This document shows positions 1 through 18,262 of a stretch of DNA of 18,780 nucleotides, piece after piece. The notes under the pieces were generated by a model. The model saw only the letters and a list, made by a program, of their open reading frames with translations, was not told the DNA's origin and did not search any database. Numbering within the stretch: position 1 is the first letter of the stretch; each line of letters opens with the position of its first letter. The position numbers and the translations under genes were made by a program. Origin of the DNA: a virus; UHGV virus genome UHGV-1706803; one strand, written 5' to 3'.

Positions 1-110
1 TCCAGCCTTATGGCAAAAAAGATTCTTTGTGGTGGCGGACTGATGGAAAGACATCGGTTATTGCAGAGGCCATTCAATGAGTGGTCTCGACAATGGCTTA
101 TACCCTACAC

Positions 111-136
111 GGGATAACTTAACTGATATCCCTTTT
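111..136 (+). terminator. Weak terminator-like hairpin (GGGATA / 10-nt loop / TATCCC followed by TTTT) at the end of an upstream partial reading frame
   Basis: Inverted repeat gggata(111-116)/tatccc(127-132) followed by tttt(133-136), read directly from the sequence. The stem is short and AT-containing. Confidence 0.3.
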
Positions 137-157
137 AACGGATAAACGGAGCCAACA

Positions 158-400
158 ATGGCAGAGATTATTCCCATGACTGAAGAACAGAAATTCCAGT
201 TAGAGATTTACAAGCTGGTCATGAACCAGAACGCAGCCGCAGAGGAAGCGTTTCAATTCATTGGCACTGACGAGCTGAAGCTTGAGCTATTCAAAATTCA
301 CTTCCAGTCAGGTGGCGCTAATTCAGATATCACGATCCGCACATTTGAAGCGGTGCGTAAATCGAAGGAAGCGTTAGACCTGTTCACCGCTGGAGTGTGA
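158..400 (+). CDS. Hypothetical 80-aa protein in the late-region accessory slot
   Basis: Complete ORF with GGAG 8 nt upstream of the ATG; its stop is 1 nt from the next start (translational coupling). No recognisable motif. Confidence 0.65.
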   Translation: MAEIIPMTEEQKFQLEIYKLVMNQNAAAEEAFQFIGTDELKLELFKIHFQSGGANSDITIRTFEAVRKSKEALDLFTAGV

Positions 401-401
401 T

Positions 402-791
402 ATGGCTAAGGCCAAATGGCACAAACTCCCGGCGTTCACCATTCCGCTGTTTCAAAGTGCACATGTCTACTTCGCAACAACCAGAGAACAGTTTCAGCAC
501 GCTGATAAATACCTTGGCGGCAGCGGGGATGAGAAGCCATTCAATCTTGGGTTTGCAAGAAACTATGAAAACACTGATACGGGTGAGCGATGCTATCTGA
601 TTGGAGTATTCGATCAGCAGATCGCTACGCTCGTTCATGAGTGCGCCCACGTCTGCTTTTACGTTTGCTCTGATGTCGGCGTGACGACAAGGCCTGAAGA
701 TGCCAACGAGACGTACTGTTACATGCTGGACAGGATGGTTAATCACTTCCTGCCATTCATTCAGGAGAAACAAGATGTATCACTGGAATAA
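402..791 (+). CDS. Hypothetical 129-aa protein with an HExxH motif (LVHECAHV); candidate minimal zinc metallopeptidase-like protein
   Basis: ORF with GGAG upstream and coupled to the preceding ORF. HECAH is preceded by a hydrophobic strand (CYLIGVF) and followed by acidic residues about 19 aa downstream, a zincin-like arrangement. No homology search was possible. Confidence 0.65.
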   Translation: MAKAKWHKLPAFTIPLFQSAHVYFATTREQFQHADKYLGGSGDEKPFNLGFARNYENTDTGERCYLIGVFDQQIATLVHECAHVCFYVCSDVGVTTRPEDANETYCYMLDRMVNHFLPFIQEKQDVSLE

Positions 792-969
792 TCAATCCCC
801 TTATTGCCAATGCCAACGCTGCCCGTGCTGCGGGAAGATTGTTAACCAATTTACTGGCAACAATTTCTTCAAGACTGGTTATGGATATGGTGTTGCGGGT
901 AGCGTTAATTGCTCTGGGGCTGCTGCTGAAACGACATCAAACACAGGCAAGCAGAAAGGAGCTAAGTAA
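775..969 (+). CDS. Small Cys-rich ORF of 64 aa (CQCQRCPCC cluster), possible metal-binding mini-protein
   Basis: ATG at 775 with aGGAGaaacaag upstream; overlaps the end of the preceding ORF; its TAA stop overlaps the ATG of the next tiny ORF (TAATG). A competing ORF in another frame (839..1030) makes this uncertain. Confidence 0.3.
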   Translation: MYHWNNQSPYCQCQRCPCCGKIVNQFTGNNFFKTGYGYGVAGSVNCSGAAAETTSNTGKQKGAK

Positions 970-1058
970 TGGTAATCAAAGTTTGTTCAGGCTCTCAGGG
1001 CTTCGACAACCCATCCAAATTCCGCGATGAATGGGATAAGCAAGCAGAAGGGAAATAA
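969..1058 (+). CDS. Tiny 29-aa ORF with a strong Shine-Dalgarno (AAAGGAG, 7-nt spacer), immediately upstream of the small terminase
   Basis: ATG at 969 in a TAATG overlap with the upstream ORF; strong RBS; ends 5 nt before the small terminase start. It could be a leader or regulatory peptide, or not a gene. Confidence 0.2.
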
Positions 1059-1063
1059 TCAAT

Positions 1064-1552
1064 ATGGCAGCACCAAAGGGCAACCGATTTTGGGAGGCCC
1101 GCAGTAGTCATGGGCGAAACCCTAAATTCGAATCGCCTGAGGAGCTGTGGGCTGCTTGTTGTGAATACTTCGAGTGGGTGGAAGCTAACCCGCTATGGGA
1201 GATGAAGGCGTTCTCGTATCAGGGTGAAGTGATACAAGAGCCTATCGCCAAGATGCGAGCGATGACCATTACCGGCCTCACTCTGTTCATTGATGTGACG
1301 CTTGAAACATGGCGCACATATCGCCTGCGAGAAGATTTATCTGAAGTCGTTACGCGAGCAGAGCAGGTCATCTACGACCAGAAATTCTCTGGCGCAGCCG
1401 CTGACCTTCTCAACGCTAACATCATCGCCCGTGATTTGGGCCTCAAAGAGCAGTCGCAAGTTGAAGACGTGACACCTGATAAGGGAGATCGCGATAAGCG
1501 GCGCTCTCGTATCAAGGAGCTATTCAACCGTGGAACTGGACGCGATTCTTGA
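1064..1552 (+). CDS. 3: Terminase small subunit (P22 gp3-like), 162 aa
   Basis: Length and N-terminus ([26 protein letters not shown]...) agree with my recollection of P22 gp3. It overlaps the start of the large terminase by 23 nt, as in P22, and contains the pac-like sequence. Confidence 0.93.
1331..1358 (+). other. pac: pac site (headful packaging initiation) inside the small terminase gene
   Basis: The sequence gaagatttatctgaagtcgttacgcgag matches the P22 pac site as I recall it, at the expected position in gene 3 (gp3 residues around 90-99). Confidence 0.55.
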
Positions 1553-3029
1553 TAACCTGAGCGACGAAGAGCAAATCGAATTGCTCGAGCTACTCGAAGA
1601 AGAAGAGAACTACCGGAACACACACCTGCTATATGAATTTACGCCATACAGCAAACAGCGTGAGTTCATCGACGCCGGACATGACTATCCAGAGCGATGT
1701 TTTATGGCTGGTAACCAGCTTGGTAAGTCATTTACTGGTGCTGCTGAAGTCGCGTTTCACCTTACAGGGCGTTACCCGGGCACAAAAGGCTATCCTGCTG
1801 ATGGTAAATATGGCGGTGAGTGGAAAGGTAAGCGTTTCTATGAGCCTGTTGTCTTCTGGATTGGTGGCGAGACAAACGAGACTGTAACCAAAACGACTCA
1901 ACGCATCCTGTGCGGTCGTATCGAAGAGAATGATGAGCCTGGCTACGGTTCCATACCGAAAGAAGACATCATTAGCTGGAAGAAGTCTCCTTTCTTTCCG
2001 AACCTTGTTGATCATCTTCTGGTTAAGCATCACACGGCTGATGGCGTTGAAGATGGCATTTCAATCTGCTACTTCAAGCCATACTCGCAAGGCCGTGCTC
2101 GCTGGCAGGGTGACACAATCCACGGCGTGTGGTTTGACGAAGAGCCACCATACAGCATTTATGGCGAAGGTCTTACCCGTACCAACAAATACGGGCAATT
2201 CTCAATTCTGACGTTTACCCCGCTGATGGGGATGTCTGACGTTGTTACCAAGTTCCTGAAGAATCCCAGCAAGTCGCAGAAAGTGGTCAACATGACTATA
2301 TACGACGCTGAGCACTACACAGACGAGCAGAAAGAGCAAATCATCGCATCCTATCCCGAGCATGAGAGAGAGGCGCGTGCTCGCGGTATTCCTACGATGG
2401 GTAGTGGTCGAATCTTCCAGATACCGGAAGAGACGATTAAGTGTCAGCCGTTCGAGTGTCCTGATCACTTCTACGTAATTGGCGGGATGGATTTCGGATG
2501 GGATCACCCACAGGCGCAGGTTCAGCTTTGGTGGGATAAGGACGCAGACACAATCTACGTTTCACGCGTGTGGAAGGCGAAAGAAAAAACAGCTGTTCAG
2601 GCATGGGGAGCTGTTAAATCATGGGCGCATAAAGTGCCAACCGCATGGCCTCATGACGGAAACCAGCATGAGAAGGGCGGCGGTGAGCAGCTCAAAGGGC
2701 AGTATGCAGACGCTGGTTTTATGATGTTGCAGGAGCATGCGACATGGCCTGATGGCGGTAATGCTGTGGAGCCTGGCATCACTGAATTGCGCGACATGAT
2801 GCTCGATGGACGCTTCAAAGTATTCAACACCTGTGAGCCATTCTTTGAGGAGTTCCGCCTCTATCACCGTGATGAAAACGGGAAGATCGTCAAGCTTAAC
2901 GACGACGTTCTCTCAGCCGTTCGCTATGCATACATGATGCGCCGCTTCGCCAAAATGATGCGCGACATCAAAAAACCAAAAGAGAAAAAGATACCAGCCC
3001 CAATCAGGCCCATCGCACGGAGAACTTAA
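1530..3029 (+). CDS. 2: Terminase large subunit (P22 gp2-like), 499 aa
   Basis: 499-aa ORF directly after gp3. An acidic N-terminus ([14 protein letters not shown]) is followed by an ATPase-type region and a C-terminal nuclease-type region typical of large terminases. Length equals P22 gp2. Confidence 0.93.
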
Positions 3030-5195
3030 ATGGCCGACGAAAACAGACTCAATTCCATTCTGTGTAAGTTTGACGCAGACTGGATGGCGAGCGATGAAGC
3101 CAGAACCGAGGCGACAAATGACCTGTATTTTAGCCGAGTGTCGCAATGGGATGACTGGCTATCAAACTACACCACCCTGCAATATCGCGGACAATTCGAT
3201 GTTGTCCGCCCGGTGGTCAGGAAACTGGTCGCAGAGATGCGCCGGAACCCTATCGACGTTCTCTTCCGACCCAAAGACGGTGCTAATCCTGATGCAGCCG
3301 ATGTGTTGATGGGGATGTATCGTACTGATATGCGCCATAACACGGCAAAGATTGCCGTTAACGTTGGCGTTCGTGAGCAGATAGAGTCCGGCGTTGGTGC
3401 ATGGCGTCTGGTCACGCAGTACGAAGACAACGACCCAACAAGCAACAATCAGGTAATCCGACGCCTTCCAATCCATGAAGCCTGCTCACACGTCATATGG
3501 GACGCCAATAGCAAGCAGATGGATAAGAGCGACGCTAAGCACTGCACGGTGATTAACGCTTTGTCACGCAATGGCTGGAAAGAGTTCGCAGAGGATTACG
3601 GTATTGATCCTGACACCTTGCCATCTTTCCAGAATCCGAACGATACATGGCTGTTTCCGTGGGTATCGAATGATGTCGTCTACGTCGCTGAGTATTACGA
3701 GGTCGAAGAGAAGAAAGAGAAAGTCTTCATCTACCGCGACCCGCTGACAGGTGATCCGGTCAGCTATTACCAGCAGGATATCAAAGACGTCATCGACGAC
3801 CTGGCTAATCGTGGATTCATTAAGGTAGCAGAGCGTAAGGTCAAGCGTCGGCGTGTGTATAAGTCGATCATCACCTGCACGCAGATACTGAAAGACCGCG
3901 AGAAGATAGCTGGAGAGCATATCCCAATCGTTCCAGTGTATGGCGAATGGTCATTCGCTGGTGACAAGGAGTGCTACGAAGGAGTGGTAAGGCTGACGAA
4001 AGACGGTCAACGCCTTCGTAACATGATCATGTCATTCAACGCCGATATTGTTGCTCGTTCACCGAAGAAGAAACCGACCTTCTTCCCTGAGCAAATCGAA
4101 GGCTACGAATACATGTACGGTGGAAATGATGACTATCCGTACTATCTGCAGAACAGGACCGATGAAAACGGTAACGACCTGCCGATTGGTCCAATCTCCT
4201 ACATGGAAAACCCTGAAGTGCCGCAAGCCAACGCTTATATGCTTGAGGCTGCCACCAACGCAGTGAAAGAGGTGGCTAGTCTTGGCGTGGATGCGCAGGC
4301 AGCAAACTCTCAGGTCGCTTTCGATACCGTTAATCAACTGAACATGCGGGCAGACCTTGAGACATACGTGTTTCAGGATAACCTGGCTACCGCAATGCGA
4401 CGTGATGGCGAGATTTATGCCTCAATGGTCAACGATATTTATGACGTTCCTCGTCATGTAACGCTGACACTTGAAGATGGTAGCGAGAAAGACGTTCAAC
4501 TCTACGCGCAAGTTGTCGATTATCAGTCCGGCAATGTGGTCACACTCAACGACATTCGCGGTCGCTATGAGTGCTATACGGACGTTGGGCCATCCTTCCA
4601 GAGCATGAAGGAACAGAACCGCGCAGAGATTCAGGAATTGCTCACCAAGGTTCCGCAAGGTACTCCAGAGTTCCAGATGCTGATGCTGCAATACTTCACG
4701 CTCCTTGACGGTAAAGGCGTCGAGATGATGCGAGAGTACGCGAACAAGCAACTGGTGATGATGGGGCTGAAGAAGCCAGAAACACCTGAAGAGATGGAGA
4801 TGGTACAGCAGGCTCAACAGCAGCCGCAGCAGCCATCAGCAGAGCAAATTCAGGCGCAGGGTATCCTTCTGCAAGGTCAGGCTGAATTGCTCAAGGCAGA
4901 GAACCAACAGGCGCAGATTCAGGTTGAAGCCGCCAAGGTTGAAGCCCAAAACCAACTCAACGCCGCGAAGATTGCAGAAATCTTCAACAATATGGACCTC
5001 GACAAGCAGGCAGAACTGCGTGAGTACCTCAAGCTCGTAGGTCAATTCCAGCAACAGCGCAGCAAGGACGCTCGTGCTAACGCTGAGCTGCTTCTTAAAG
5101 ATGCAGACCAGACTCATTCACAACGCATGGATTTCGCGAATCTTATGCGTCAAGTTCAAATCCCCTCCGGCGGAGTAGCCGAGACACCTCAATAA
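3030..5195 (+). CDS. 1: Portal protein (P22 gp1-like), 721 aa
   Basis: Position after the large terminase; size close to P22 portal (about 725 aa); Q/A/E-rich helical C-terminal tail consistent with the P22 portal barrel. Confidence 0.93.
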
Positions 5196-5208
5196 GAGAG
5201 AGTTAATC

Positions 5209-6120
5209 ATGGACCAAACCACCGACATTCAGGCTTCTGAAGAATTAACCCTGCCCGGCAATCATGCAGCGGCATCTGCTGATGGCTTAGTTGTCGATAA
5301 TGCCAACGACAACGCAGGTCAGGAAGAAGGCTTCGAGATTGTCCTGAAAGACGATGAGAAACCAAAACAAGACCCGGCAACTAATGCTGAATTTGCCCGT
5401 CGCCGCATCGAACGCAAACGCCAGCGTGAGCTTGAGCAGCAGATGGAAGCGGTTAAGCGTGGAGAGTTGCCGGAGCACCTGCGGGTGAACCCTGAGTTAC
5501 CAAAACAACCAGACCCTAACGATTATCTTTCCGAAGACGCACTGGCTAAGTACGACTATGACCAGAGCCGCGCACTGGCTGCCTTCCAGCAGGCAAACAG
5601 TGAATGGCAGATCAAGGCTATGGACGCACGAAGCCAGGCTGTAGCCGAGCAGGGCCGCAAAACTCAGGAGTTCACCCAGCAATCAGCGCAATACGTCGAG
5701 GCAGCCCGTAAGCACTACGACGCAGCGGAAAAGCTCAATATCCCTGACTATCAGGAGAAAGAGGACGTATTCATGCAACTGGTTCCGCCAGCAGTCGGTG
5801 CCGACATCATGCGCCTCTTCCCGGAGAAATCCGCTGCTCTCATGTATCACCTTGGTGCTAATCCTGAGAAAACACGCCAGTTGCTGGCGATGGACGGGCA
5901 ATCCGCGCTGATTGAACTCACTCGACTGTCAGAACGTTTAACTCTCAAGCCTCGAGCCAAGTCTGTTTCAGAAGCCCCGTTACCTGATGAACCCATTCAG
6001 GGACATGCTGTTGCTGCAAATATCTCTGCGATTGAAAAGCAGATGGAGGCGGCAGCAAACAAAGGGGATGTAGAGACGTACCGCAAGCTCAAGGCGCAAC
6101 TGAATAAAGGAATTCGATAA
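5209..6120 (+). CDS. 8: Scaffolding protein (P22 gp8-like), 303 aa
   Basis: 303 aa, matching P22 gp8; charged, helical, low-complexity composition; located between portal and coat. Confidence 0.9.
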
Positions 6121-7415
6121 TGGCATTAAATGAAGGTCAACTGGTCACGTATGCTCTGGATGAAATCATCGAAACCGTCCAGAACCTGACGCCAATGGCG
6201 TCAAAAGTGACAAAATACACCCCTCCGGCAGAATCCATGCAGCGTTCAAGCAACACCGTGTGGATGCCTGTTGAGCAGGAAGCGCCAACCCAGACTGGCT
6301 GGGATTTAACTGGCAACGCAACCGGGATTCTGGAACTCTCCGTGAAATGCAACATGGGCGATCCGGATAACGATTTCTTCGAGCTTCGTGCAGATGACCT
6401 GCGTGATGAACGTTCTTACCGTCGCCGCATCCAGGCATCCGCCAAAAAACTGGCGAATAACATTGAGTCAGCAATTGCCAAACAGGCAACCGAAATGGGC
6501 TCACTTGTTGTTCACGATACCCGCGCAATTGGTCCATCTACTGGCCTGTCTGGCTGGGATTTTGTGTCTGATGCAGAGCGCCTGATGTTCTCCCGTGAGC
6601 TAAACCGCGATATGGGCATCAGTTACTTCCTGAACCCTGACGATTACCGCAAAGCAGGCCGCAACCTGGTAGATGGTGACATCTTTGGGCGCGTTCCTGA
6701 AGACGCGTATCGCAACGGTACTATTCAGCGTCAGATTGCTGGCTTTGATGAAATTCTTCGCTCACCGAAACTTCCGGCAGTTACCAAGTCAACCGCTACT
6801 GGTGTAACTGTTTCTGGTGCGCAGAAGTTTAAGCCGCAGGCATACACCCTTGATACCGATGGTAACAAAGAGAACGTCGATAACCGTGTTGCAACGGTGA
6901 CCGTATCCTCCACCACCGGATTTAAGCGCGGCGACAAAATCAGCTTCACTGGTGTGAAATTCCTGTCTCAGATGGCGAAGAACGTGCTGACTGATGATGC
7001 GACTTTCTCAATCACCCGTGTGATCGATGGTACTCACATCGAAATCACGCCGAAGCCGATTGCGCTGGATGACGCGTCACTGACAAAAGAAGAGAAGGCT
7101 TACGCTAACGTAAACACCTCTCTTGCTGATACCACTCCGGTAAACGTTCTGAACGTGGCAACAACCACCGCTAACGTGTTCTGGGCTGATGACTCAATCC
7201 GCCTGCTGTCTCAGCCGATTCCGGTAACCCATGAACTGTTTGCTGGCATGAAAACTTCTTCCTTCAGCATTCCAGGTATTGGTGTTAACGGCATCTTCGC
7301 AACGCAGGGGGATATCAACACTCTGTCTGGCAAGTGCCGTATTGCTGTGTGGTATTCAGCATGTGCTGTACGACCAGAGGCAATTGGTGTTGGTCTGCCT
7401 AACCAGACCGCGTGA
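6120..7415 (+). CDS. 5: Major coat protein (P22 gp5-like), 431 aa
   Basis: Position and size (P22 coat is about 430 aa); ATG overlaps the scaffold stop (TAATG); followed by a strong intrinsic terminator. Confidence 0.93.
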
Positions 7416-7422
7416 TAACCAG

Positions 7423-7446
7423 AGGGAGCTTCGGCTCCCTTTTTTA
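7423..7446 (+). terminator. Rho-independent terminator after the coat gene
   Basis: 7-bp GC-rich stem (AGGGAGC/GCTCCCT) with a TTCG tetraloop, followed by a run of six T, beginning 8 nt after the coat stop. Confidence 0.65.
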
Positions 7447-7459
7447 TCTGGAGACAAGC

Positions 7460-7702
7460 ATGACACACATGATCTTTCGTCATGGAGACATGAAGAAGTG
7501 GAAAGGCGTTGGATACGACTTTGAAATCGTGAAAGCCGAAGAGCTTCAGGAATATCTGGATGCTGGCTGGTTTGCACATCCTGATGATCTTCTGAAGGAT
7601 GTTGCCGAGCCAGAGCCAGAGCCAGAGCCAGAAGAAAAACAGCGTAAAAAGCCTGGTCGAAAACCTAAGGCGGCAGCAGATGAACCTGACAACGAAGGGT
7701 GA
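7460..7702 (+). CDS. Hypothetical 80-aa protein between coat and gp4, with a (PE)n repeat and a basic KKPGRKPK tail
   Basis: ATG at 7460 preceded by GGAG; lies directly after the terminator; the 3' end overlaps the gp4 start in another frame. It contains a GAGCCA x4 tandem repeat. Confidence 0.5.
7608..7631 (+). repeat. Hexanucleotide tandem repeat (GAGCCA) x4 encoding PEPEPEPE
   Basis: gagccagagccagagccagagcca read directly from the sequence, inside the 7460..7702 ORF. Confidence 0.8.
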
Positions 7703-8180
7703 TTTAGTCCTTGCAGCATTACGTAAGCTCGGTGTTGCATCAAATGCCACGTTAACCGATGTCGAACCGCAGTCTATGGAAGACGGCGTCAACGACCTTG
7801 AAATGATGATGGCTGAATGGCTTGGCGGTGATGCGTCACCTGGTATCAACGTTGGCTACATTTTCGCTGAAGCAGATGTCGCTCCAGATCCGGGCGATGA
7901 GCACGGTTTATCAAATAACGCTATCAATGCTGTCATTTTCAACCTTGCCTGCCGCATTGCTCCGGATTATGCGCTGGAAGCACCTGCAAAACTTATAACT
8001 ACTGCCAGATACGGGAAAGAGCGACTCGTCAAACCGTCTGCAATGGACAGAGCAAAAGCCGCCAAATGTAAGTCCGGTTATCCAAACCGTATGCCTGTTG
8101 GTAGCGGTAATCAGTTGGCGAAGTGGAACGGTTGGAATTACTTCCACCGGAAGGAACCTTGCGATAACGGGAGCGAATAA
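7680..8180 (+). CDS. 4: Head completion / tail adaptor protein (P22 gp4-like), 166 aa
   Basis: Internal ATG at 7680 gives 166 aa, the P22 gp4 length; N-terminus [33 protein letters not shown] resembles gp4 as I recall it. The upstream ORF extension (7599..7679) is probably not translated. Confidence 0.88.
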
Positions 8181-9599
8181 ATGCCGATTCAGCAACTTCC
8201 GCTTATGAAAGGTGTCGGCAAAGACTTTCGAAACGCCGACTATATCGACTATCTGCCAGTGAATATGTTGGCTACACCCAAAGAAATCCTTAACAGCAGC
8301 GGATATCTTCGTTCATTCCCTGGCATTGCCAAACGTTCTGATGTGAATGGTGTATCGCGCGGTGTCGAGTACAACATGGCGCAGAGTGCTGTTTATCGCG
8401 TGTGTGGTGGGAAGCTCTACAAAGGCGAGAGCGAAGTCGGTGACGTCGCTGGAAGTGGTCGCGTATCAATGGCGCATGGTCGGACATCACAGGCGGTAGG
8501 CGTTAATGGTCAACTGGTCGAGTATCGTTATGATGGCACGGTTAAAACCGTCTCAAACTGGCCTACAGACAGCGGATTAACTCAGTATGAGTTAGGTTCA
8601 GTCCGCGACATTACACGCTTACGTGGGCGTTATGCGTGGTCAAAAGACGGCACGGATTCATGGTTTATCACTGACCTTGAAGACGAATCGCACCCTGACC
8701 GATACAGCGCACAATATCGCGCAGAATCGCAGCCTGACGGCATCATCGGCATCGGAACATGGCGAGACTTCATCGTCTGCTTTGGTTCATCGACGATTGA
8801 ATATTTCTCCCTGACAGGTGCAACCACCGTTGGTGCCGCTTTGTATGTCGCACAGCCATCACTGATGGTGCAGAAAGGTATTGCCGGGACTTACTGCAAA
8901 ACGCCGTTTGCTGATTCTTATGCGTTCATCAGCAATCCGGCAACAGGTGCGCCGTCTGTGTATATCATCGGCTCCGGTCAGGTGTCACCAATCGCCAGCG
9001 CGAGCATTGAGAAAATTCTCCGCTCCTACACTGCTGATGAACTGGCTGATGGCGTGATGGAGTCTCTGCGATTTGATGCGCATGAGCTGCTGATTATCCA
9101 TCTTCCGCGCCATGTCCTCGTATACGACGCATCTTCAAGCGCCAATGGTCCGCAATGGTGTGTGCTGAAAACAGGACTGTATGACGATGTGTACCGCGCT
9201 ATCGACTTCATTTACGAAGGCAATCAGATAACGTGCGGCGATAAGCTGGAGTCCGTGACCGGGAAATTGCAGTTCGATATCAGCAGCCAGTACGACAGGC
9301 AACAGGAACACCTGCTGTTTACTCCGTTGTTCAAAGCTGAGAACGCCAGAGTTTTCGACTTTGAGGTTGAATCTTCAACTGGCGTTGCGCAGTACGCTGA
9401 CCGCCTTTTTCTCTCTGCAACCACTGACGGCATAAATTACGGTCGTGAGCAGATGATTGAACAGAATGAACCGTTCGTTTACGACAAACGCGTTTTGTGG
9501 AAGCGTGTCGGGCGAATCAGGAAAAATGTCGGCTTCAAATTGCGCGTTATCACCAAATCACCAGTAACACTATCCGGGTGTCAAATTCGTCTGGAGTAA
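8181..9599 (+). CDS. 10: Tail hub / head completion protein (P22 gp10-like), 472 aa
   Basis: 472 aa, the P22 gp10 length; located between gp4 and the tail needle. Confidence 0.9.
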   Translation: MPIQQLPLMKGVGKDFRNADYIDYLPVNMLATPKEILNSSGYLRSFPGIAKRSDVNGVSRGVEYNMAQSAVYRVCGGKLYKGESEVGDVAGSGRVSMAHGRTSQAVGVNGQLVEYRYDGTVKTVSNWPTDSGLTQYELGSVRDITRLRGRYAWSKDGTDSWFITDLEDESHPDRYSAQYRAESQPDGIIGIGTWRDFIVCFGSSTIEYFSLTGATTVGAALYVAQPSLMVQKGIAGTYCKTPFADSYAFISNPATGAPSVYIIGSGQVSPIASASIEKILRSYTADELADGVMESLRFDAHELLIIHLPRHVLVYDASSSANGPQWCVLKTGLYDDVYRAIDFIYEGNQITCGDKLESVTGKLQFDISSQYDRQQEHLLFTPLFKAENARVFDFEVESSTGVAQYADRLFLSATTDGINYGREQMIEQNEPFVYDKRVLWKRVGRIRKNVGFKLRVITKSPVTLSGCQIRLE

Positions 9600-9602
9600 C
9601 AT

Positions 9603-10241
9603 ATGGCAGACCCGTCACTTAATAAGCCTGTCGTGGTTCAGGCTACACGCATTGATGCATCTATTCTCCCTCGCAACATATTCAGTCAGTCTTACCTTCT
9701 GTATGTCATAAATCAGGGTACTGATGTTGGCTCCATTGCAGAAAAGGCAAATCAGGCAGGAGGCGGTGCTTATGTTGCGCAGGTCAGAAATGATGAGCAG
9801 GATTTAATTCTTGATGAGCACGAAAAAAGAATTGCAAAAACAGAAGAGGATATTTCAGGAATAAAAGTAAAGCTTCTTGAAATAGAGAATGATGTTAATG
9901 GCCTGAAAATAAAAGTTCAGGATATCGACGGTAAGGTATCAGATATAATCGTTGATTATGTTTCACTCAGCAGAACAGGAACTCAAACTCTTGCCTCATC
10001 CATTAACGTATCAGGAAGTTATTTTGTTAACGGTGCAAAAGTTGTTGGCGCTCGCCAGACTGGATGGACCGCGGCAACAGGTACGGCGAATAAAGGCGCA
10101 TTCAATGCTGACCTGACATTCACCGTTAGCGATACTTACACGCAATCTGAAATCCAGGCTATAGCCAATGCTCTAATTGCTGAGCGTCGGCGCACTAAGG
10201 CTTTGGAAGACGCCTTGCGTGCACATGGGCTGATTGATTAA
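9603..10241 (+). CDS. 26: Tail needle / cell-puncturing protein (P22 gp26-like), 212 aa, with a shortened central coiled coil
   Basis: N-terminus [25 protein letters not shown] and C-terminus ...[27 protein letters not shown] match P22 gp26 as recalled. The central heptad-repeat segment is AT-rich and the protein is about 21 aa shorter than P22 gp26 (233 aa). Confidence 0.9.
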
Positions 10242-10696
10242 TGATTACATTCATTCCAACACGAAACATCGACCTGATAGAAACTGTCGGCAACCATCCC
10301 GACATCATCGCCGGGAGCAACAACGGTGATGGATACGACTACAAATCTGAATGCCGTTACTTTGAGGTTAACGTGCACGGTCAGTTTGGCGGCATTGTTT
10401 ACTATCAGGAAATTCAGCCGCTTACATTCGATTGCCACGCAATGTACCTGCCAGAGATTCGCGGCTTCAGCAAGGAAATCGGGCTGGCGTTCTGGCGATA
10501 CATTCTGACTAACACCACCGTTCAGTGCGTCACATCGTTCGCCGCACGCAAATTCCGCCACGGGCAGATTTACTGCGCAATGATTGGCCTTAAGCGTGTC
10601 GGAACCATCAAGAAATACTTTAAAGGCGTGGATGACGTGACTTTTTACAGCGCCACACGCGAAGAACTAATCGACTTCCTGAATCACGGGAGATAG
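10241..10696 (+). CDS. 14: gp14-like virion / ejection-associated protein, 151 aa
   Basis: Called by position between gp26 and gp7; ATG overlaps the gp26 stop (TAATG). I do not recognise the sequence itself. Confidence 0.65.
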   Translation: MITFIPTRNIDLIETVGNHPDIIAGSNNGDGYDYKSECRYFEVNVHGQFGGIVYYQEIQPLTFDCHAMYLPEIRGFSKEIGLAFWRYILTNTTVQCVTSFAARKFRHGQIYCAMIGLKRVGTIKKYFKGVDDVTFYSATREELIDFLNHGR

Positions 10697-10698
10697 CC

Positions 10699-11391
10699 AT
10701 GTTATATGCATTTAAGCTGGGCAGAAAACTGCGCGGCGAGGAACCTTGGTGCCCTGAAAAAGGCGGGAAAGGTGGCAGCTCTGATAAAAGCGCAAAGTAT
10801 GCAGCAGAAGCTCAGAAGTATGCCGCAGACCTGCAAAATCAGCAGTGGCAGACGATCATGAAAAACCTTGCTCCTTTCACGCCGCTTGCGGAGCAGTATG
10901 TTAACCAGCTTCAGAATCTTTCCAGTTTAGAAGGACAGGGTCAGGCACTTAATCAGTATTACAACTCTCAGCAGTATAAAGACCTTGCAGGTCAGGCGCG
11001 TTACCAGAGTCTTGCTGCTGCGGAGGCGACGGGTGGACTTGGTTCGACAGCCACAAGCAATCAACTGGCTACGATCGCGCCGACACTCGGTCAGTCTTGG
11101 TTATCAAATCAGATGAGCAACTACAACAATCTGGCAAACGTTGGGCTTGGTGCGCTGCAAGGTCAGGCAAACGCCGGGCAGACGTACGCCAACAACATGA
11201 GCAGCATTGCACAGCAAAGCGCAGCACTTGCCGCTGCTAATGCCAATAAACCATCAAGTCTTCAGACTGCAATTAGCGGCGGCACGTCTGGTGCGATTGC
11301 CGGTGCAGGTCTTGCCAGCCTTTTGGGAACATCAACGCCTTGGGGCGCTGGCATTGGTGCTGGTATCGGATTGCTTGGCTCGTTGTTTTAA
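10699..11391 (+). CDS. 7: Ejection (injection) protein gp7-like, 230 aa
   Basis: Position and size (P22 gp7 about 229 aa); Q/N/A-rich with a glycine-zipper hydrophobic C-terminus (GAIAGAGLASLLG...GAGIGAGIGLLGSLF). Confidence 0.85.
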   Translation: MLYAFKLGRKLRGEEPWCPEKGGKGGSSDKSAKYAAEAQKYAADLQNQQWQTIMKNLAPFTPLAEQYVNQLQNLSSLEGQGQALNQYYNSQQYKDLAGQARYQSLAAAEATGGLGSTATSNQLATIAPTLGQSWLSNQMSNYNNLANVGLGALQGQANAGQTYANNMSSIAQQSAALAAANANKPSSLQTAISGGTSGAIAGAGLASLLGTSTPWGAGIGAGIGLLGSLF

Positions 11392-11400
11392 GGGGTAATC

Positions 11401-12789
11401 ATGGCTACTTGGCAAGGAACAAACGGCGGATTGTTGGCTGGTATCGGCGGCGTCAACTCAAACGCTCCGAGCGTAAATGACATCGGCAATACGCTTCAGC
11501 TTATCAGGCAGAACAATGATATTGAGCGTTCAGGCGCTAACAATGTTGGGCTGACTGCTTTGCAAGGCCTTTCAGGTATTGCGGGGGTGTTTCAGCAGGA
11601 AAAGCAGGCTCAGCGGCAGAAAGAATTTCAGCAGGCATACGCTAATGCTTATGCGTCTGGTGATCGCGGTGCTTTGCGTCAGTTGGCTACTCAATATCCA
11701 GACCAGATTGAATCCGTTCGTAAAGGCATGGGATTCATTGATGAAGACCAGCGTAATTCTATCGGCACCTTAGCGGCTGGCGCACGCCTTGCGTCATCGT
11801 CTCCAGAAGCAATGCAATCATGGCTGCAAAACAACGCCAAGGAACTGACTCGCGTCGGTGTTTACCCTAACAGCGTTGCTCAGATGTATCAGCAGAATCC
11901 TTCAGGATTTGGTGAGTTTGTTGATCACCTTGGGATGGCTGCTCTTGGTCCGATTGATTACTTCAATGTTCAGGACAAGATGGCTGGTCGTGAAATTGAC
12001 CGAGGCAGGCTGGCAGAGACAATCCGCAGCAATCAGGCTGGCGAGGCACTAACAGCACGAGGTCAGAACATCACGATGCGCGGTCAGGACTTATCTGCTT
12101 CTACTGCGCGACGAGGTCAGGATTTGGCAATGCAGCGAGCGTCAACAAGACGAATCGCTGGGAATGATGAGCGTACAGTTCAGTTATCAGATGGCAGAAC
12201 TGTAACGGTAGGCGGGAAGCTTCACGGCGCTGGAGCTAATGCGTTCTACGAAGGCATCGACAACGAGGGGAATATGGTTCGCGTTCCTGCCAGTTCAATC
12301 GCAGCGCCTGCAACATCGTCTGCATCAGCACAAAACTATGCCATGAAGAAGGATATCGACGCGATCGCAAATGCAGACGCTTCTGCTCTCGATTTCATGA
12401 CAGGAATGACAGGCGGTGCAGGTAATCCAGCAATTGGTGCTGATGTTCGCAGCCGATTAACAGGAAAAGAGCAGCGCCAGTTATATAACTCAGCACAACG
12501 TATTCAGGGCAGAATGCAGAATCAGGGTGTGGCGGCAGCAAGGGACATGGGTGCCAGTGGTATTAACACCGTTGCAGAAGCGAAGATGTATTTTCAGGGG
12601 ATGCCGCAGGTTGACTATTCAAGCCCGGAGGCTATGCAGCAGTCGATTCGTGAGATTCAGGAATACACCAACAATTACAACCAACAATATAACGTTAATG
12701 TTGGTAAATCTCAGCGGCAGCAATCTCAACCTGCACAGGTATCACAGCCAGCAGCCAGCAGTAACTTTTCTTCACTATGGGGTGATTAA
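11401..12789 (+). CDS. 20: Ejection protein gp20-like, 462 aa
   Basis: Position and size (P22 gp20 about 471 aa); low-complexity Q/A/G-rich composition. Confidence 0.85.
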
Positions 12790-14786
12790 TGGCTAAAGCA
12801 TGGAAAGATGTTATCGCCTCCCCACAGTATCAGGCGTTAGCACCAGAACAAAAAGCGCAGGCTCAGGAGCAATACTTCAATGAAGTCGTGGCCCCGCAAG
12901 CCGGAGAAAATGCAGAGCAGGCTAAGCAAGCTTTCTATGCTGCCTATCCATTGCCATCTGTGCAGCCAGTGGAGACACAACAACCAGTAGCACAGCAACA
13001 ACCACAGCAAAGTGGATTTATGTCTGATCTTGGTGAAGCAGTAAAAGAGACTGGTCGTGGACTGGTGCAGGCTGGCGTGAACGTGGCAAACATACCTGCA
13101 TCAGTTGCCGATGCTGTAACAAGCGCGGCGGCTTGGGCTGGCGGTAAACTCGGCATCGGCGATGGTACATATCAACCAGCACCACGAGTAACAACGCAGG
13201 GATTAGAGCAGGACTTTGGCCTTCAGCAAGGTGCGCTGACTCCACAAACGACAGAGGGAAGGGTATTTGCTGAAGCATTGCCTTACCTCACTCCTGCTGG
13301 CGTTGAGAGAGCGGCGGTACAGGCACCAACACTTGCTGGTCGAATTGCTCAGGGGGCAACTCGCCTTCTAGCAGAAAACGCAGTTGGATCACTTGCTGCA
13401 AATAGTGCGAAAGATGATGCGGAAGCACTCGCCACCGATTTAGGCGTTGGTGTACTTGCTGGCGGTGCTATTAACGCTGCCGGGCGTGGATTAGGTGCTG
13501 CTTATCGTGGCGTTCGTGGTGCTATTGCGCCAGAAGCGCAGCAGGCTATCAGATTTGCAGAGCGTGAAGGTGTTCCTCTGCACACCACAGACCTGTTACA
13601 ACCCACTTCCCGCGTCGGAAAAATGGCGCAAACGACAGCAGAAAATATCCCCCTGGCTGGCACAAGCGGAATGAGAGCAACGCAACAGGAAGCGAGAAGC
13701 CAGTTGGTGCAGAGATTTGCTGATAAATTCGGTGAGTATGATCCAGCGGTTGTTATTGACAGCCTTAAAGCGAAAACATCAGGAATTCGTCGCGCTGCAG
13801 GAAATCGACTGGAGCAGGTTCAGAATGCTATGGCGGGAATAAACATTCAGCCTGCAAGAGCAATTCAGCAGATTGATACAGAAATATCTAACCTGCAGAA
13901 GCTTGGTAAGGTTGCTGATAACGAGACTATTTCAAAACTTCAGTCCTATCGTGATGAGCTTGTTCGCAATGCTGGTCCTGATGGTCCGGTCAATCTGGAT
14001 TTGAAGCAATTAAGCGATCTGCGCAGCCAGTTCAGAATGGACGTGAAGGGTGAGCGACCAGTGTTACCAAACCGTTCCGATGCTGCCATTCAGCGAGTTT
14101 ACAAGGCGATGACCGACGATATCAATGGTGCCATTGGTCAGAATCTTGGCAATGATACTCTTCGTAAATATCAGCAGGCCAATGCCGTCTACGCTGACGA
14201 AGCGGCGAAACTAAAGAATACCAGGCTGAAGAATGTTCTCATGAAAGGCGACCTGACGCCGGAAGTTGTCAACAACATGCTATTCAGCAAGAACAAATCG
14301 GAAATTAAGACTCTGTATAACTCAGTTGGTCGTGTTGGCAGGGCGCAAATGCGCAATGGCATCATTGGAAAGGCGATGGAGAAATCAGGTGGTTCCCCTG
14401 ACCAGTTCCTTCGGCAGCTTAATATCCTGCAAAACCAGACTGGCATCACATTTAAAGGTCAGGAAGCCGCTTATCTGAAAGGATTGAAAAACTACCTGCA
14501 ATCCACGCAGCAGGCTGCAAAAGCGGCAGTAACAACACCAACAGGGCAGCAAACCATCCCGTTCATTATCGGGTATGGGACGGCAATGAACCCGGCGACA
14601 ACTGGCGCAGCGGTAAGCTACGGACTTCTTACTCGCGCCTATGAGAGCGAGCCATTCAGAAATGCAATGCTCCGAATGGCAAACACCCCACGCGGATCAA
14701 CAGCGTTTGAGAAAGCCATGCAGCAGGCGCAAAAGGCCATTAACGCCCTGACTCAAGGTGCCAAGTCTGATGCGTTGTCAGAATAG
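12789..14786 (+). CDS. 16: Ejection protein gp16-like, 665 aa
   Basis: Position; start overlaps the gp20 stop (TAATG). Longer than P22 gp16 (about 609 aa as recalled), with a Q-rich N-terminal segment. Confidence 0.85.
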   Translation: MAKAWKDVIASPQYQALAPEQKAQAQEQYFNEVVAPQAGENAEQAKQAFYAAYPLPSVQPVETQQPVAQQQPQQSGFMSDLGEAVKETGRGLVQAGVNVANIPASVADAVTSAAAWAGGKLGIGDGTYQPAPRVTTQGLEQDFGLQQGALTPQTTEGRVFAEALPYLTPAGVERAAVQAPTLAGRIAQGATRLLAENAVGSLAANSAKDDAEALATDLGVGVLAGGAINAAGRGLGAAYRGVRGAIAPEAQQAIRFAEREGVPLHTTDLLQPTSRVGKMAQTTAENIPLAGTSGMRATQQEARSQLVQRFADKFGEYDPAVVIDSLKAKTSGIRRAAGNRLEQVQNAMAGINIQPARAIQQIDTEISNLQKLGKVADNETISKLQSYRDELVRNAGPDGPVNLDLKQLSDLRSQFRMDVKGERPVLPNRSDAAIQRVYKAMTDDINGAIGQNLGNDTLRKYQQANAVYADEAAKLKNTRLKNVLMKGDLTPEVVNNMLFSKNKSEIKTLYNSVGRVGRAQMRNGIIGKAMEKSGGSPDQFLRQLNILQNQTGITFKGQEAAYLKGLKNYLQSTQQAAKAAVTTPTGQQTIPFIIGYGTAMNPATTGAAVSYGLLTRAYESEPFRNAMLRMANTPRGSTAFEKAMQQAQKAINALTQGAKSDALSE

Positions 14787-14875
14787 CTTCGCAAACACCA
14801 GGAACGTGCAAAAACCAAATATGTAGAACGCAATATTCAGCATATCTCTTTGCATAAATCCTCCGTAACTGATAG

Positions 14876-15257: not shown

Positions 15258-17120
15258 ATGTCAGATATCACCGCAAATGTTGTGGTAAGCATGCCTTCGC
15301 AACTCTTCACTATGGCTCGTTCTTTTAAAGCCGTAGCCAATGGCAAAATTTATATCGGTAAAATTGACACTGACCCGGTAAATCCTGAAAACCAGATTCA
15401 GGTTTATGTAGAGAACGAAGACGGCTCTCACGTTCCTGTATCGCAACCAATCATCATTAACGCTGCTGGATATCCGGTATATAACGGACAGATTGCCAAG
15501 TTCGTAACTGTACAGGGCCATTCTATGGCTGTTTATGATGCGTATGGTGCACAGCAGTTTTATTTTCCTAATGTGCTGAAGTATGACCCAGATCAACTCG
15601 AACAGCGACTTTCGTCAAATACTGGCGCATCTTTGATAGGAACCGAATCAGGAAAAACAGTCCAGGAAGAGATAGATAATATCAAGAATGAGGGTTTATT
15701 TACCGAATTTGATAATTTTTCTGACGCAAAGGCGGCGGAGATACAAAACAGAACAATTAGTATAAAATTCAAGTATGGGACAATTAATTATATTAGAAAT
15801 AATACTACAGGGACGGCATCAAGCGGAGACGCTTATGAATTCTTTGATGCCAGTGGTAACGGTTATATCATAGACGAAAAGCAACTAACGAAAAACACAT
15901 CTGGATTGATAAGTCACACGGAGATTTGGGCAGGAGAGGATCTTGATCCAACATATCTTAATAAGGCAAAAGACCTTGGTATAAGTACTTTTGTTGCGTA
16001 TACGTGGAAAGGTAATGCGTACTCATATCATGAGCACTTCCTTGATTTATGTCAGTTATACGGCATTGACGTTATTTTGCAGGCGGTTCCTAATCAACAA
16101 TACACGACAGATCTTGATGCGGATTTTTCATGGCTATCTTCGCTATTTACCCACCCGGCAGTTATTGGTCTATATCTGCTAGATGAACCTGATTTAACAC
16201 TCTACCCGTTAACCCGTCAGGGACAGATCATAGACAAGGCACGCACAATTTCGACATTGCCCCTTTATGCTGCAACTAATGCAGAAGCCAATGGAGAGGC
16301 ATTGCCTCTTCATATGAATTTTGATTACATATTTGCGTCGAACTATGGTCACTTTATCGGTGGTATTGGTATACGAAGATATTCTGCAACAACATGGGCC
16401 TCATTTGAAGAGGAGGGCTTAAGGAAGGGGCGGGTTATTCCACTTTTAACTGCATACTGGTATGAGAACGAAACTCCAACATTAAATACGGCACAGATCA
16501 GAGACGTAAACGATTATTTATCCAGGTCATATAGCAGGCTTGGCATGTGGCAGTTTTGGGGTAATAGAAGTGTAGAAGATGGATATCACTATATTGAAAA
16601 TGATGCTCAGATTTACGATTTGGTTAAAAGCTCTATCGCGTTACGGAAAGGTTTGGTGAAAAAGCCGTCCTTAGTAAGGACTTTTTTTAGAGCCGCATCA
16701 TTACCAGCAAATTGCTACAAGTATCTAACCAAACCAGCGTATCCAGCTAACATCCCTTGGTTAGACCCCTCATCCGCATCAACATGGAATGAGGCGGCGG
16801 TTCTGCGCATCAAGGCTGGAGAGAGATTTGTTGTAAACTTTGGCTCTCCAGTTAAATTAGAGTCAGTAGTTATGACGTTAAAGGACAATAACGGATTGTC
16901 TAATACTGCAACGTTAGCTCTCATCTATAACCCTCTTGTTAGTGGGGGCCAGCAGCATGCAACAACAAAAACCTTAACTGGCGGCGGGGCGCTTGAGTGG
17001 ATTTTCCCTGGAGATGGAACCCCTTCGCACTTGGTCACTACCATTGGGATAAAATGCCTTCGTAGCACAGGAACAGACTACCTCATTGTTGAGCGACTGG
17101 GCTTTGCAATTACGGGCTAA
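15258..17120 (+). CDS. 9: Tailspike protein: P22 gp9-like N-terminal head-binding domain fused to a divergent receptor-binding / putative glycanase domain, 620 aa
   Basis: ATG at 15258 with GGAG 7 nt upstream. The N-terminal 115 aa or so ([59 protein letters not shown]...NVLKYDPDQ) are the conserved P22-family head-binding domain. The remainder is AT-rich and unlike the P22 beta-helix; it includes an LLDEPD motif and alternating hydrophobic strand/helix patterns suggestive of a TIM-barrel hydrolase. Confidence 0.85.
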
Positions 17121-17132
17121 GTTAATGTATAT

Positions 17133-17150
17133 GCGGAAATGGATTTCCGC
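17133..17150 (+). terminator. Stem-loop immediately downstream of the tailspike (GCGGAAA-TGGA-TTTCCGC); possible terminator or binding site
   Basis: 7-8 bp perfect inverted repeat 13 nt after the tailspike stop. No clear U-tract follows, so terminator function is uncertain. Confidence 0.35.
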
Positions 17151-17158
17151 ACAAACGT

Positions 17159-17187
17159 TTGATAACAGCTCTCTTTATGGTTAACAT
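17159..17187 (+). promoter_or_regulatory. Candidate sigma70 promoter for the acyltransferase gene (TTGATA-N17-TAACAT)
   Basis: -35 and -10 like hexamers with 17-nt spacing, read from the sequence, about 35 nt upstream of the ATG at 17222. Confidence 0.3.
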
Positions 17188-17221
17188 TGGTGACATTACT
17201 AATTAATGTTAAATTATATAC

Positions 17222-18262
17222 ATGAAAAACAGAAACATACAGATGCTGAGAGGGGTTTCTATAATCCTCGTCCTCATTGCTCATGCAGATACAGTGTATT
17301 GGGAAGAATTGAAAAGTATAAAAAAATATATAGACCCAACCATTGGTGTGGATTTGTTTTTTATAATTTCTGGTTATCTAATGGGGGCAACCTTCATCAG
17401 AAAGGTATTATTTGACATTAACCTTAAACACACCATTTCATTTTATATCAAAAGGCTAAACAGGCTTTTCGTTCCGTGCCTATTCTGGTCTTTCATTGTA
17501 TTTGCTCTATTTGACTACTGGCACCTTGCCGGTTTTATAAAAACGCAAGAACAGGCTTTTAAGATATTTATATCTTCAGCGACATTTACTGGTAATATAT
17601 ATAATAGCATCAAGCCTAGTGGCTTCGGGTACTTCTGGTCATTAGGTGTTGAGTTCCAGTTTTATCTAATACTTCCGCTTATTCTATTAATATGCAAAGA
17701 CATGAAGTCATTAATTATCCTGCTTGTCATAATGCTTGGCTTCTACACCTGTGTTTTGAGTTTATTCCCTGAGTCATGGCAATACAGAGCAAATGCACTT
17801 TATATCGGACTTTTGATTTGGTGCGTTACTCAGAGTGAAGGCTATCACGAAATCAAGAAATCTATAAATAATAACGGATGTGTATATATTTGTTTTATCG
17901 TCGGCGCACTCATTCTTGCTGCCTTATGCTTATCCCCTGCATTATATAAAGTGCACGGAGTTAGCTTTACGGCTATATCTATTTTATTGGGATTGGCCTT
18001 CTTTATTTGTGTATGCATGGACAAACCAATAGCTGCATTTATATCAAAACCAATTGAGTTTATTGGTGATATATCTTTTTCCTTATACCTGTGCAACATT
18101 CCTGTTTATATTTTTGTGTCGAGAGAAATGTTTACGCGCGGAATGGGAAAGCCGGAAACTATGATTGTTTCTGTCGTATTAAGTATTGCGGTTGCAACTG
18201 CAAGCCGTTACACATTAGAAAAAATAGATTTTATAAAGTTAAATAAAAATCTAGTTAGGTGA
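17222..18262 (+). CDS. Integral-membrane acyltransferase family 3 protein, probable O-antigen O-acetyltransferase (Oac/OafA-like lysogenic conversion gene), 346 aa
   Basis: N-terminal MLRGVSIILVLIAHA and GVDLFFIISGYLMG motifs are characteristic of the acyltransferase_3 family; multiple hydrophobic helices; AT-rich composition; location downstream of the tailspike, as for oac in Sf6. Confidence 0.85.
   Translation: MKNRNIQMLRGVSIILVLIAHADTVYWEELKSIKKYIDPTIGVDLFFIISGYLMGATFIRKVLFDINLKHTISFYIKRLNRLFVPCLFWSFIVFALFDYWHLAGFIKTQEQAFKIFISSATFTGNIYNSIKPSGFGYFWSLGVEFQFYLILPLILLICKDMKSLIILLVIMLGFYTCVLSLFPESWQYRANALYIGLLIWCVTQSEGYHEIKKSINNNGCVYICFIVGALILAALCLSPALYKVHGVSFTAISILLGLAFFICVCMDKPIAAFISKPIEFIGDISFSLYLCNIPVYIFVSREMFTRGMGKPETMIVSVVLSIAVATASRYTLEKIDFIKLNKNLVR

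Follow-up and report, generated by a model that had tools for sequence, protein, structure and literature searches.

Tail Needles of P22-like Phages

The tail needles of P22-like phages have been described with respect to their function, the types of their tips, the number of their heptads and their horizontal exchange (PMC3741392). In the P22 virion, gp26 is the plug of the channel and is released at infection, and the heptad counts, which are 11 in both P22 and Sf6, range from 11 to 16 (PMC3741392). Coiled-coil shafts with a varying number of heptads are also found in the needles of the Sf6/HS1 group (PMC3741392). The product of gene 26 in the reference record of P22 is 233 aa long. Work by Olia et al. 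in 2007 reportedly gave the P22 needle a length of roughly 240 Å, defined the domain boundaries of gp26 and recognized the IxxLxxxV octads of its core.

The DNA analyzed here, hereafter the window, is a stretch of 18,780 nt of the UHGV virus genome UHGV-1706803. Its positions 9603-10241 very probably encode the tail needle of an E. coli prophage of the P22-like group (Lederbergvirus), in the form of the catalogued 212-aa "ST64T/L/Sf101-type" allele, with a gp26-like function and with two layers of mosaic history, namely a recent cassette exchange and an older replacement of the shaft.

Identity and Position of the Needle Gene

The gene is placed between the homologues of gene 10 and gene 14, as in the virion module of P22-like phages:

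8181-9599, + strand: gene 10 homologue (tail hub, head closure), upstream of the needle gene; PF11134, E = 1e-298; nucleotide identity to IME10 of 88-100% until about 9540
9603-10241, + strand: tail needle gene (gene 26 homologue), 212 aa, ST64T/L/Sf101-type allele; full-length nucleotide identity of 97.5-98.7% to 22 phage records; PHROG 1219
10241-10696, + strand: gene 14 homologue (DUF2824), downstream of the needle gene; PF11039, E = 3e-52; IME10-like from about 10330

The 212-aa protein, taken from the ORF list (ORF 9603-10241, + strand), matches phrog_1219 of PHROGs, "tail needle protein", with E = 4e-99, and it owes its name to PHROGs only, as Pfam and NCBIfam searches assigned no family. 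Its best solved relatives are P22 gp26 (2POH, 3C9I), with E about 1e-82, and the HK620 needle (5BU5); the homology to gp26 covers the whole length and the order of the domains is common to both proteins. Another PHROG profile, "tail needle knob", matches the N-terminal 114 residues only. These matches, along with the gp10-gp14 synteny, bear out the original prediction of a tail needle. The host follows from a prophage locus (L013) that equals the window at 100% over the compared region 7600-12800, displays the complete P22-like gene order and adjoins the E. coli gene dacD (99.9% identity), indicating that the needle gene belongs to a P22-like E. coli prophage.

Distribution of the Allele

The 22 phage records that contain the 639-nt gene include SI8, Sf101, ST64T, ST160, L, PM43 and two records named P22 (AB362338 and AB426868, the latter being P22 ATCC 19585-B1). 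Over the 639 nt, the identity is 98.7% to SI8 and 98.0% to ST64T, ST160, L and P22 ATCC. The exact 212-aa protein is present on 43 contigs, which bear the names Salmonella enterica and E. coli, and in 88 blocks of the collection, while two related 212-aa clusters, with 651 and 198 members, are mostly from Salmonella. The AT-rich shaft of the needle (described below) was found in 6 of 5426 complete E. coli genomes, and the flanking P22-like genes were matched in 938 genomes. An assembly or sequencing artefact was considered and rejected, since the same allele recurs in the 22 records and the protein on the 43 contigs.

A reading of the feature as a peculiarity of this DNA did not hold: the whole gene is a known allele, the one of ST64T, L, Sf101, SI8 and P22 ATCC 19585-B1. 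The needle is thus a real but ordinary, already catalogued mosaic, and the discovery value is small, because the allele has been present in sequenced phages since ST64T and mosaic needles with variable coil length have been published (PMC3741392).

Domains and Comparison with P22 gp26

The alignment to gp26 divides the protein into four parts:

9603-9779, + strand: N-terminal plug domain, aa 1-59; amino acid identities of 81% (P22 gp26) and 84% (IME10); GC 0.47, GC3 0.39-0.40; would bind the gp10 hub, judging from P22 gp26 (PMC3741392)
9780-9965, + strand: AT-rich, predicted coiled-coil shaft of 59 aa (63-121), from the NDEQD motif to DYVS, the counterpart being 80 aa in P22 and IME10; GC 0.32, GC2 0.15, GC3 0.24-0.27
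9966-10037, + strand: region homologous to the gp26 triple beta-helix, aa 122-145, in which the divergent AT-rich block continues; GC3 0.22-0.23; 50% aa identity to P22; aligns to 2POH up to residue 165
10038-10241, + strand: C-terminal tip of the P22 type, aa 146-212, starting at a conserved 15-residue motif; 96.6% nucleotide identity to reference P22 over gene nt 436-639; 94% aa identity

The plug domain is also matched by 8eap_B (62 residues, "Tail needle protein gp26"), which covers needle residues 3-64 with E = 7e-27. Identity to P22 gp26 is far from uniform, amounting to 81% for aa 1-59, 33% for aa 60-119, 50% for aa 120-145 and 94% for aa 146-212. In sliding windows of nucleotide identity, the N-terminal part gives 70-82%, the centre 31-60% and the C-terminal part 95-98%. 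The tip is therefore of the P22 type and not an Sf6-type knob. The alignment has gaps of 14 and 7 residues, which make up exactly the three heptads by which 212 aa differ from 233 aa.

The GC content in 120-nt windows drops to 0.317-0.333 at 9780-9979, versus 0.45-0.53 on both sides. The 180-nt window that starts at 9780 has a GC of 0.328 and falls within the lowest 0.6% of all such windows, and in the structural genes (1-14800) this needle stretch is the only place where the GC of 180-nt windows goes below 0.36. Further stretches below 0.36 occur in the window, at 15608-15750, inside the tailspike gene, and at 17072-18111, in the gene after it, which corresponds to an Acyl_transf_3 protein in the matching prophage and may be an O-antigen acetylase.

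These data agree with the original prediction as to the AT-rich centre, the shortening by three heptads and an identity to P22 that varies by segment along with a shift in composition. Its other statements need qualification. P22-like ends were claimed, and the C-terminus is indeed close to P22; the N-terminus is P22-like as a protein, but its DNA is not P22-identical. A replacement of the central coiled coil was suggested, and the centre does have an ancestry different from that of the ends, but the block exceeds the coiled coil and enters the triple beta-helix region, ending at about aa 145 (about nt 10030). Nor was the centre exchanged for unrelated sequence: it retains homology, though diverged, to the helical core of P22, and when searched by itself it hits 2POH 85-165 with E = 5e-7.

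Recent Exchange of a Needle Cassette

The junctions of the needle region were placed by using the sites at which IME10 and ST64T differ, and the identity in sliding windows agrees with this placement:

9549-10329, + strand: recombinant ST64T-type cassette in an IME10/HK620-like backbone; left junction at 9548-9554, right junction at 10297-10330

The backbone is IME10/HK620-like, with 88-100% identity on the left as far as about 9540 and on the right beyond about 10320. Between the junctions, the identity is 90-100% (mostly 97-100%) to ST64T and SI8 versus 26-88% to IME10. The cassette measures about 0.75 kb (about 9550-10300); it starts 50 nt before the end of gene 10, includes the whole of gene 26 and reaches 60-90 nt into gene 14. 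Like the window, other genomes combine this gene with different surroundings: the needle gene is 100% identical at the nucleotide level in four prophages of which the flanks are only 76-92% identical.

A second case is provided by two records of P22 itself. AB426868 (P22 ATCC 19585-B1) and NC_002371 (reference P22) are identical at 5000-8151 and 9172-12063 and differ only in one patch of about 1 kb, 8152-9171, in which the ATCC stock has the 212-aa allele and the reference the 233-aa allele. Taken together with the junction positions, this patch indicates that the moving unit is a cassette of about 0.75-1 kb that is exchanged via its conserved flanks. The suggestion that the central coil alone had been swapped within a P22 gene does not fit this result, since the recent recombination moved the entire gene.

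The proposed course of the recent layer is that the cassette would have passed from the Salmonella phage pool to an HK620/IME10-like E. coli prophage by homologous recombination at the conserved flanks. We infer the direction, from Salmonella to E. coli, from frequency alone, namely the 6 of 5426 E. coli genomes against the Salmonella-named clusters of 651 and 198 members. The presence of an identical cassette in Salmonella and E. coli prophages makes it a clean case of a single virion gene exchanged across genera.

The gp10 C-terminus might have been transferred together with the needle, to which it would be co-adapted; this idea was rejected because the last 45 residues of gp10 are near-identical in all types, with one I/L difference versus IME10. 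In two related prophages, an HNH/NUMOD4 homing-endonuclease gene is located between gene 4 and gene 10 (L006 7609-8334, from E. coli ET490, and L016 8047-8631). Its neighbor in ET490 is a fragment with the annotation of an incomplete packaged-DNA stabilization protein. The window lacks this gene. An element of this kind could favor gene conversion near genes 10 and 26.

A further explanation deals with the reason for the exchange: the cassette would spread by allowing escape from host or prophage defenses that recognize the needle, such as the Tai systems, and needle length would be incidental. TaiEcC blocks the assembly of both P22 and HK620, and escape mutations have been reported in the C-terminal region of gp26 (PMC11364771), which is, however, the part that this allele has in common with P22. 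The identical cassette in divergent backbones would fit such a pressure, and so would the preponderance of non-synonymous changes between ST64T-type alleles (6 aa out of 8 nt versus SI8 and 11 aa out of 13 nt versus ST64T), but these counts are too small for a dN/dS above 1 to be claimed. Defense escape is regarded as a plausible, though not a likely, driver; because it addresses the spread of the gene and not its identity, it is compatible with the assignment of the locus as a P22-like needle gene of two mosaic layers.

A Probable Older Mosaic Inside the Allele

The mosaic nature of the needle is not limited to the recent transfer. The block formed by the shaft and the beta-helix region (aa 63-148) has a GC3 of 0.22-0.24, compared with about 0.40-0.47 at the ends of the gene and 0.53-0.62 in the neighboring genes. 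Outside the ST64T type, the nearest shaft is that of P0120, the needle of an APSE-like contig (L009, from Logan SRR26425455), with 65% identity and the same length of 59 aa. This contig has a GC of 35.6% and a P22-type virion module; its needle is 216 aa long and the GC3 of the shaft is 0.20. The 3.5 kb around its needle gene are 76-78% identical at the nucleotide level to the APSE phages of insect symbionts. At its ends, the window needle is 35% (N-terminus) and 67% (tip) identical to P0120, while the order is reversed versus P22, with 81% and 94% at the ends and 33% in the shaft.

The same shaft type, again of 59 aa, occurs in another needle (P0114, 55% identity) at a GC3 of 0.64, on a contig with 53% GC, indicating that the protein sequence does not force a low GC. 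Both the composition shift and the breaks in identity fall at two conserved islands, AQV(K/R)NDEQD and a second one that begins with KV(V/I) and continues for 12 residues. In two further needles (P0013 and P0016) an N-terminus and shaft of the ST64T type are joined to a non-P22 tip, which marks the second island as an active junction.

On this evidence, aa 63-148 would stem from P22-like phages of a low-GC lineage akin to the APSE-like phages, and this shaft block would have been joined to P22-like ends at the two conserved islands. At 65% identity, the nearest low-GC shaft is too distant to be taken for the actual donor, and when the 86-aa central segment was used by itself as the query of a protein search, only 4 fragments and no donor came back. 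Scans of the AT-rich stretch and its surroundings for Rfam families, promoters, terminators and tandem repeats, on both strands, returned nothing, which speaks against the presence of an RNA, a promoter or a DNA-level repeat there. The internal recombinational replacement of the original prediction is thus upheld for the older layer, by the 33% identity to P22 against 65% to an APSE-like shaft and by the GC3 of 0.24, but it is not the recent event of the window.

One might argue instead that the AT-rich centre is not foreign: its low GC would reflect a coil with many Lys, Ile, Glu, Asp and Asn residues, in an allele that arose in situ by divergence from a P22-like ancestor and had three heptads deleted. 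The amino acid composition does contribute, as the GC2 of aa 60-119 is 0.15, but GC3 is low as well (0.22-0.27, well under the values of the gene ends and the neighboring genes), and the homologous 59-aa shaft on the GC-rich contig shows that a GC3 of 0.64 is attainable. In P22, 14 residues are repeated within the protein (DHEARIKQLRIDVD / DHESRITANTKAIT), and since the needle of the window can be aligned to the one copy as well as to the other, a simple two-heptad deletion or duplication is plausible; moreover, whole-heptad indels occur at several positions in the needle family. The identities of the segments are nevertheless incongruent, the shaft being nearer to an APSE-like phage and the ends nearer to P22, and divergence in place is considered improbable. 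The older replacement of a block that is joined to P22-like ends is retained as the preferred reading.

Register, Fold and Length of the Shaft

The heptad scan places an "a" position at residue 77 and at every seventh residue thereafter, the last being the conserved Tyr of DYVS (Y119 here and Y140 in P22). The register has the same phase in the window needle and in P22 and is unbroken at aa 77-119; the needle is three heptads shorter with the phase of P22 retained. The rise along a coiled coil is about 1.5 Å per residue, and with 21 in-phase residues missing, the needle is predicted to be about 31 Å shorter than that of P22. The 212-aa class would have about 8 heptads; as an 8-heptad needle is absent from the published range of 11-16, the short class may lack explicit discussion.

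Heptads are also the unit in which the family varies. The full-length needle proteins are 212, 219, 226, 233 or 240 aa long, in steps of 7 residues (128 of the 131 fetched), so natural needle lengths change by whole heptads. Such whole-heptad indels would be tolerable to a coiled coil. Among the homologues, heptad indels are located at differing positions, and the 212-aa needles fall into two or more unrelated classes.

The AlphaFold2 monomer model of the window needle has a helix at 29-85, followed by strands at 90-97, 100-106 and 112-118 with a pLDDT of 66-73. The P22-type control, run with the same 45 aligned sequences, is a single helix at 29-142 with a pLDDT of 93-98. Because the helix is discontinuous in the monomer model, the coiled coil of the distal shaft is drawn from just two sources, homology and the heptad pattern. 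The strands at 90-118 are likely an artefact of modelling a monomer, compounded by the likely training of AlphaFold on P22 gp26; this is suggested by the unbroken a/d pattern and by the alignment of these residues with a core that is helical in the crystal structure.

If taken at face value, the model would mean that the triple beta-helix is prolonged by beta structure in the distal shaft (aa about 86-119), with a change of architecture and not of length alone, and the short allele would then be a needle architecture of its own, beyond gp26 minus three heptads. In addition to the contrast with the confidently helical control, this segment has an i/i+2 hydrophobic alternation with NG/DG turns, and 9858-9956 (aa 86-118) weakly matched N-terminal GFP strands (E = 0.016-1.5), a 14-residue string being paired with LVELDGDVNGHKFSV, which we take to be a GFP string. 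A beta shaft is nonetheless very improbable: the GFP matches are at chance level; the pLDDT of the beta segment is low and the model is that of a monomer, whereas the protein is an obligate trimer; the control is biased, since P22 gp26 was probably in the AlphaFold training set; the a/d sites are hydrophobic at 12 of 13 positions over aa 77-119, without a break (register read by eye); the alignment with the helical core of 2POH pairs the segment residue by residue and takes in both the conserved DG and the DYVS at the end; and the i/i+2 pattern reportedly belongs to the IxxLxxxV octads of the gp26 core.

Function and Needle Length

With a coiled-coil shaft, the protein probably works like gp26, to judge from its sequence, with a shorter coiled coil. 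By homology to gp26 (PMC3741392), the needle would be a trimeric fiber, of which residues 1-60 would plug the gp10 channel and retain the DNA in the head. The three-stranded coiled coil would form the shaft and project past the tailspikes; the short triple beta-helix and the P22-type helical tip would constitute the distal end and make the first contact with the outer membrane, and the needle would be lost upon DNA ejection.

As for the role of length, the ATCC stock of P22 carries the short allele and is otherwise identical over 7 kb to the reference, which argues that needle length is not critical on the same host. Further, the short allele is combined with several tailspikes and hosts (Salmonella, Shigella and E. 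coli), which argues against a strong host-specific role of length. No discussion of the needle difference between the P22 stocks was found in the literature searched. The ATCC and reference versions of P22 represent a natural near-isogenic pair of short and long needles, with which questions about the kinetics of DNA delivery can be asked.

Comparison with Known Needles

The closest needles are those of ST64T, ST160, L, SI8, Sf101, P22 ATCC 19585-B1 and AB362338, which have in common with the window needle the length of 212 aa, 94.8-97.2% aa identity and the position between genes 10 and 14. Of these phages, Sf101 is collinear with the window across 8160-11700, with 82-100% identity (mostly at least 90%). 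The window needle differs from these ST64T-type needles by 6-11 aa substitutions and by its setting, as the allele sits here in an HK620/IME10-like E. coli prophage. Most differences from the closest alleles are within aa 109-166. At position 58, the window needle has V, where at least 90% of 45 aligned homologues have D.

Reference P22 gp26 (233 aa; 2POH, 3C9I) has the same domain order, the same heptad phase and a near-identical tip (94% aa). The window needle is three heptads shorter, its AT-rich shaft is only 33% identical and its N-terminus 81%. The needle of HK620/IME10 (233 aa; 5BU5) comes from phages that share the backbone of the window, and its N-terminal domain is homologous (84%), but the overall aa identity is 55%, its shaft is longer by 21 residues and its tip is of another type (64%).

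The APSE-like/Sodalis phage needles (P30 of APSE and the needle of L009) resemble the window needle in the shaft, which in L009 has the same 59 aa, 65% identity and an equally low GC3. Short needles are usual in this branch, with tblastn matches of about 510-528 nt. These phages infect insect symbionts with low-GC genomes, and, as given above for L009, the identity is only 35% in the N-terminus and 67% in the tip. Finally, the knob-type needles of Sf6/HS1 are homologous to the window needle in the N-terminal 114 residues (52% aa) and end in an unrelated TNF-like knob (PMC3741392), while the window needle ends in a P22-type tip.
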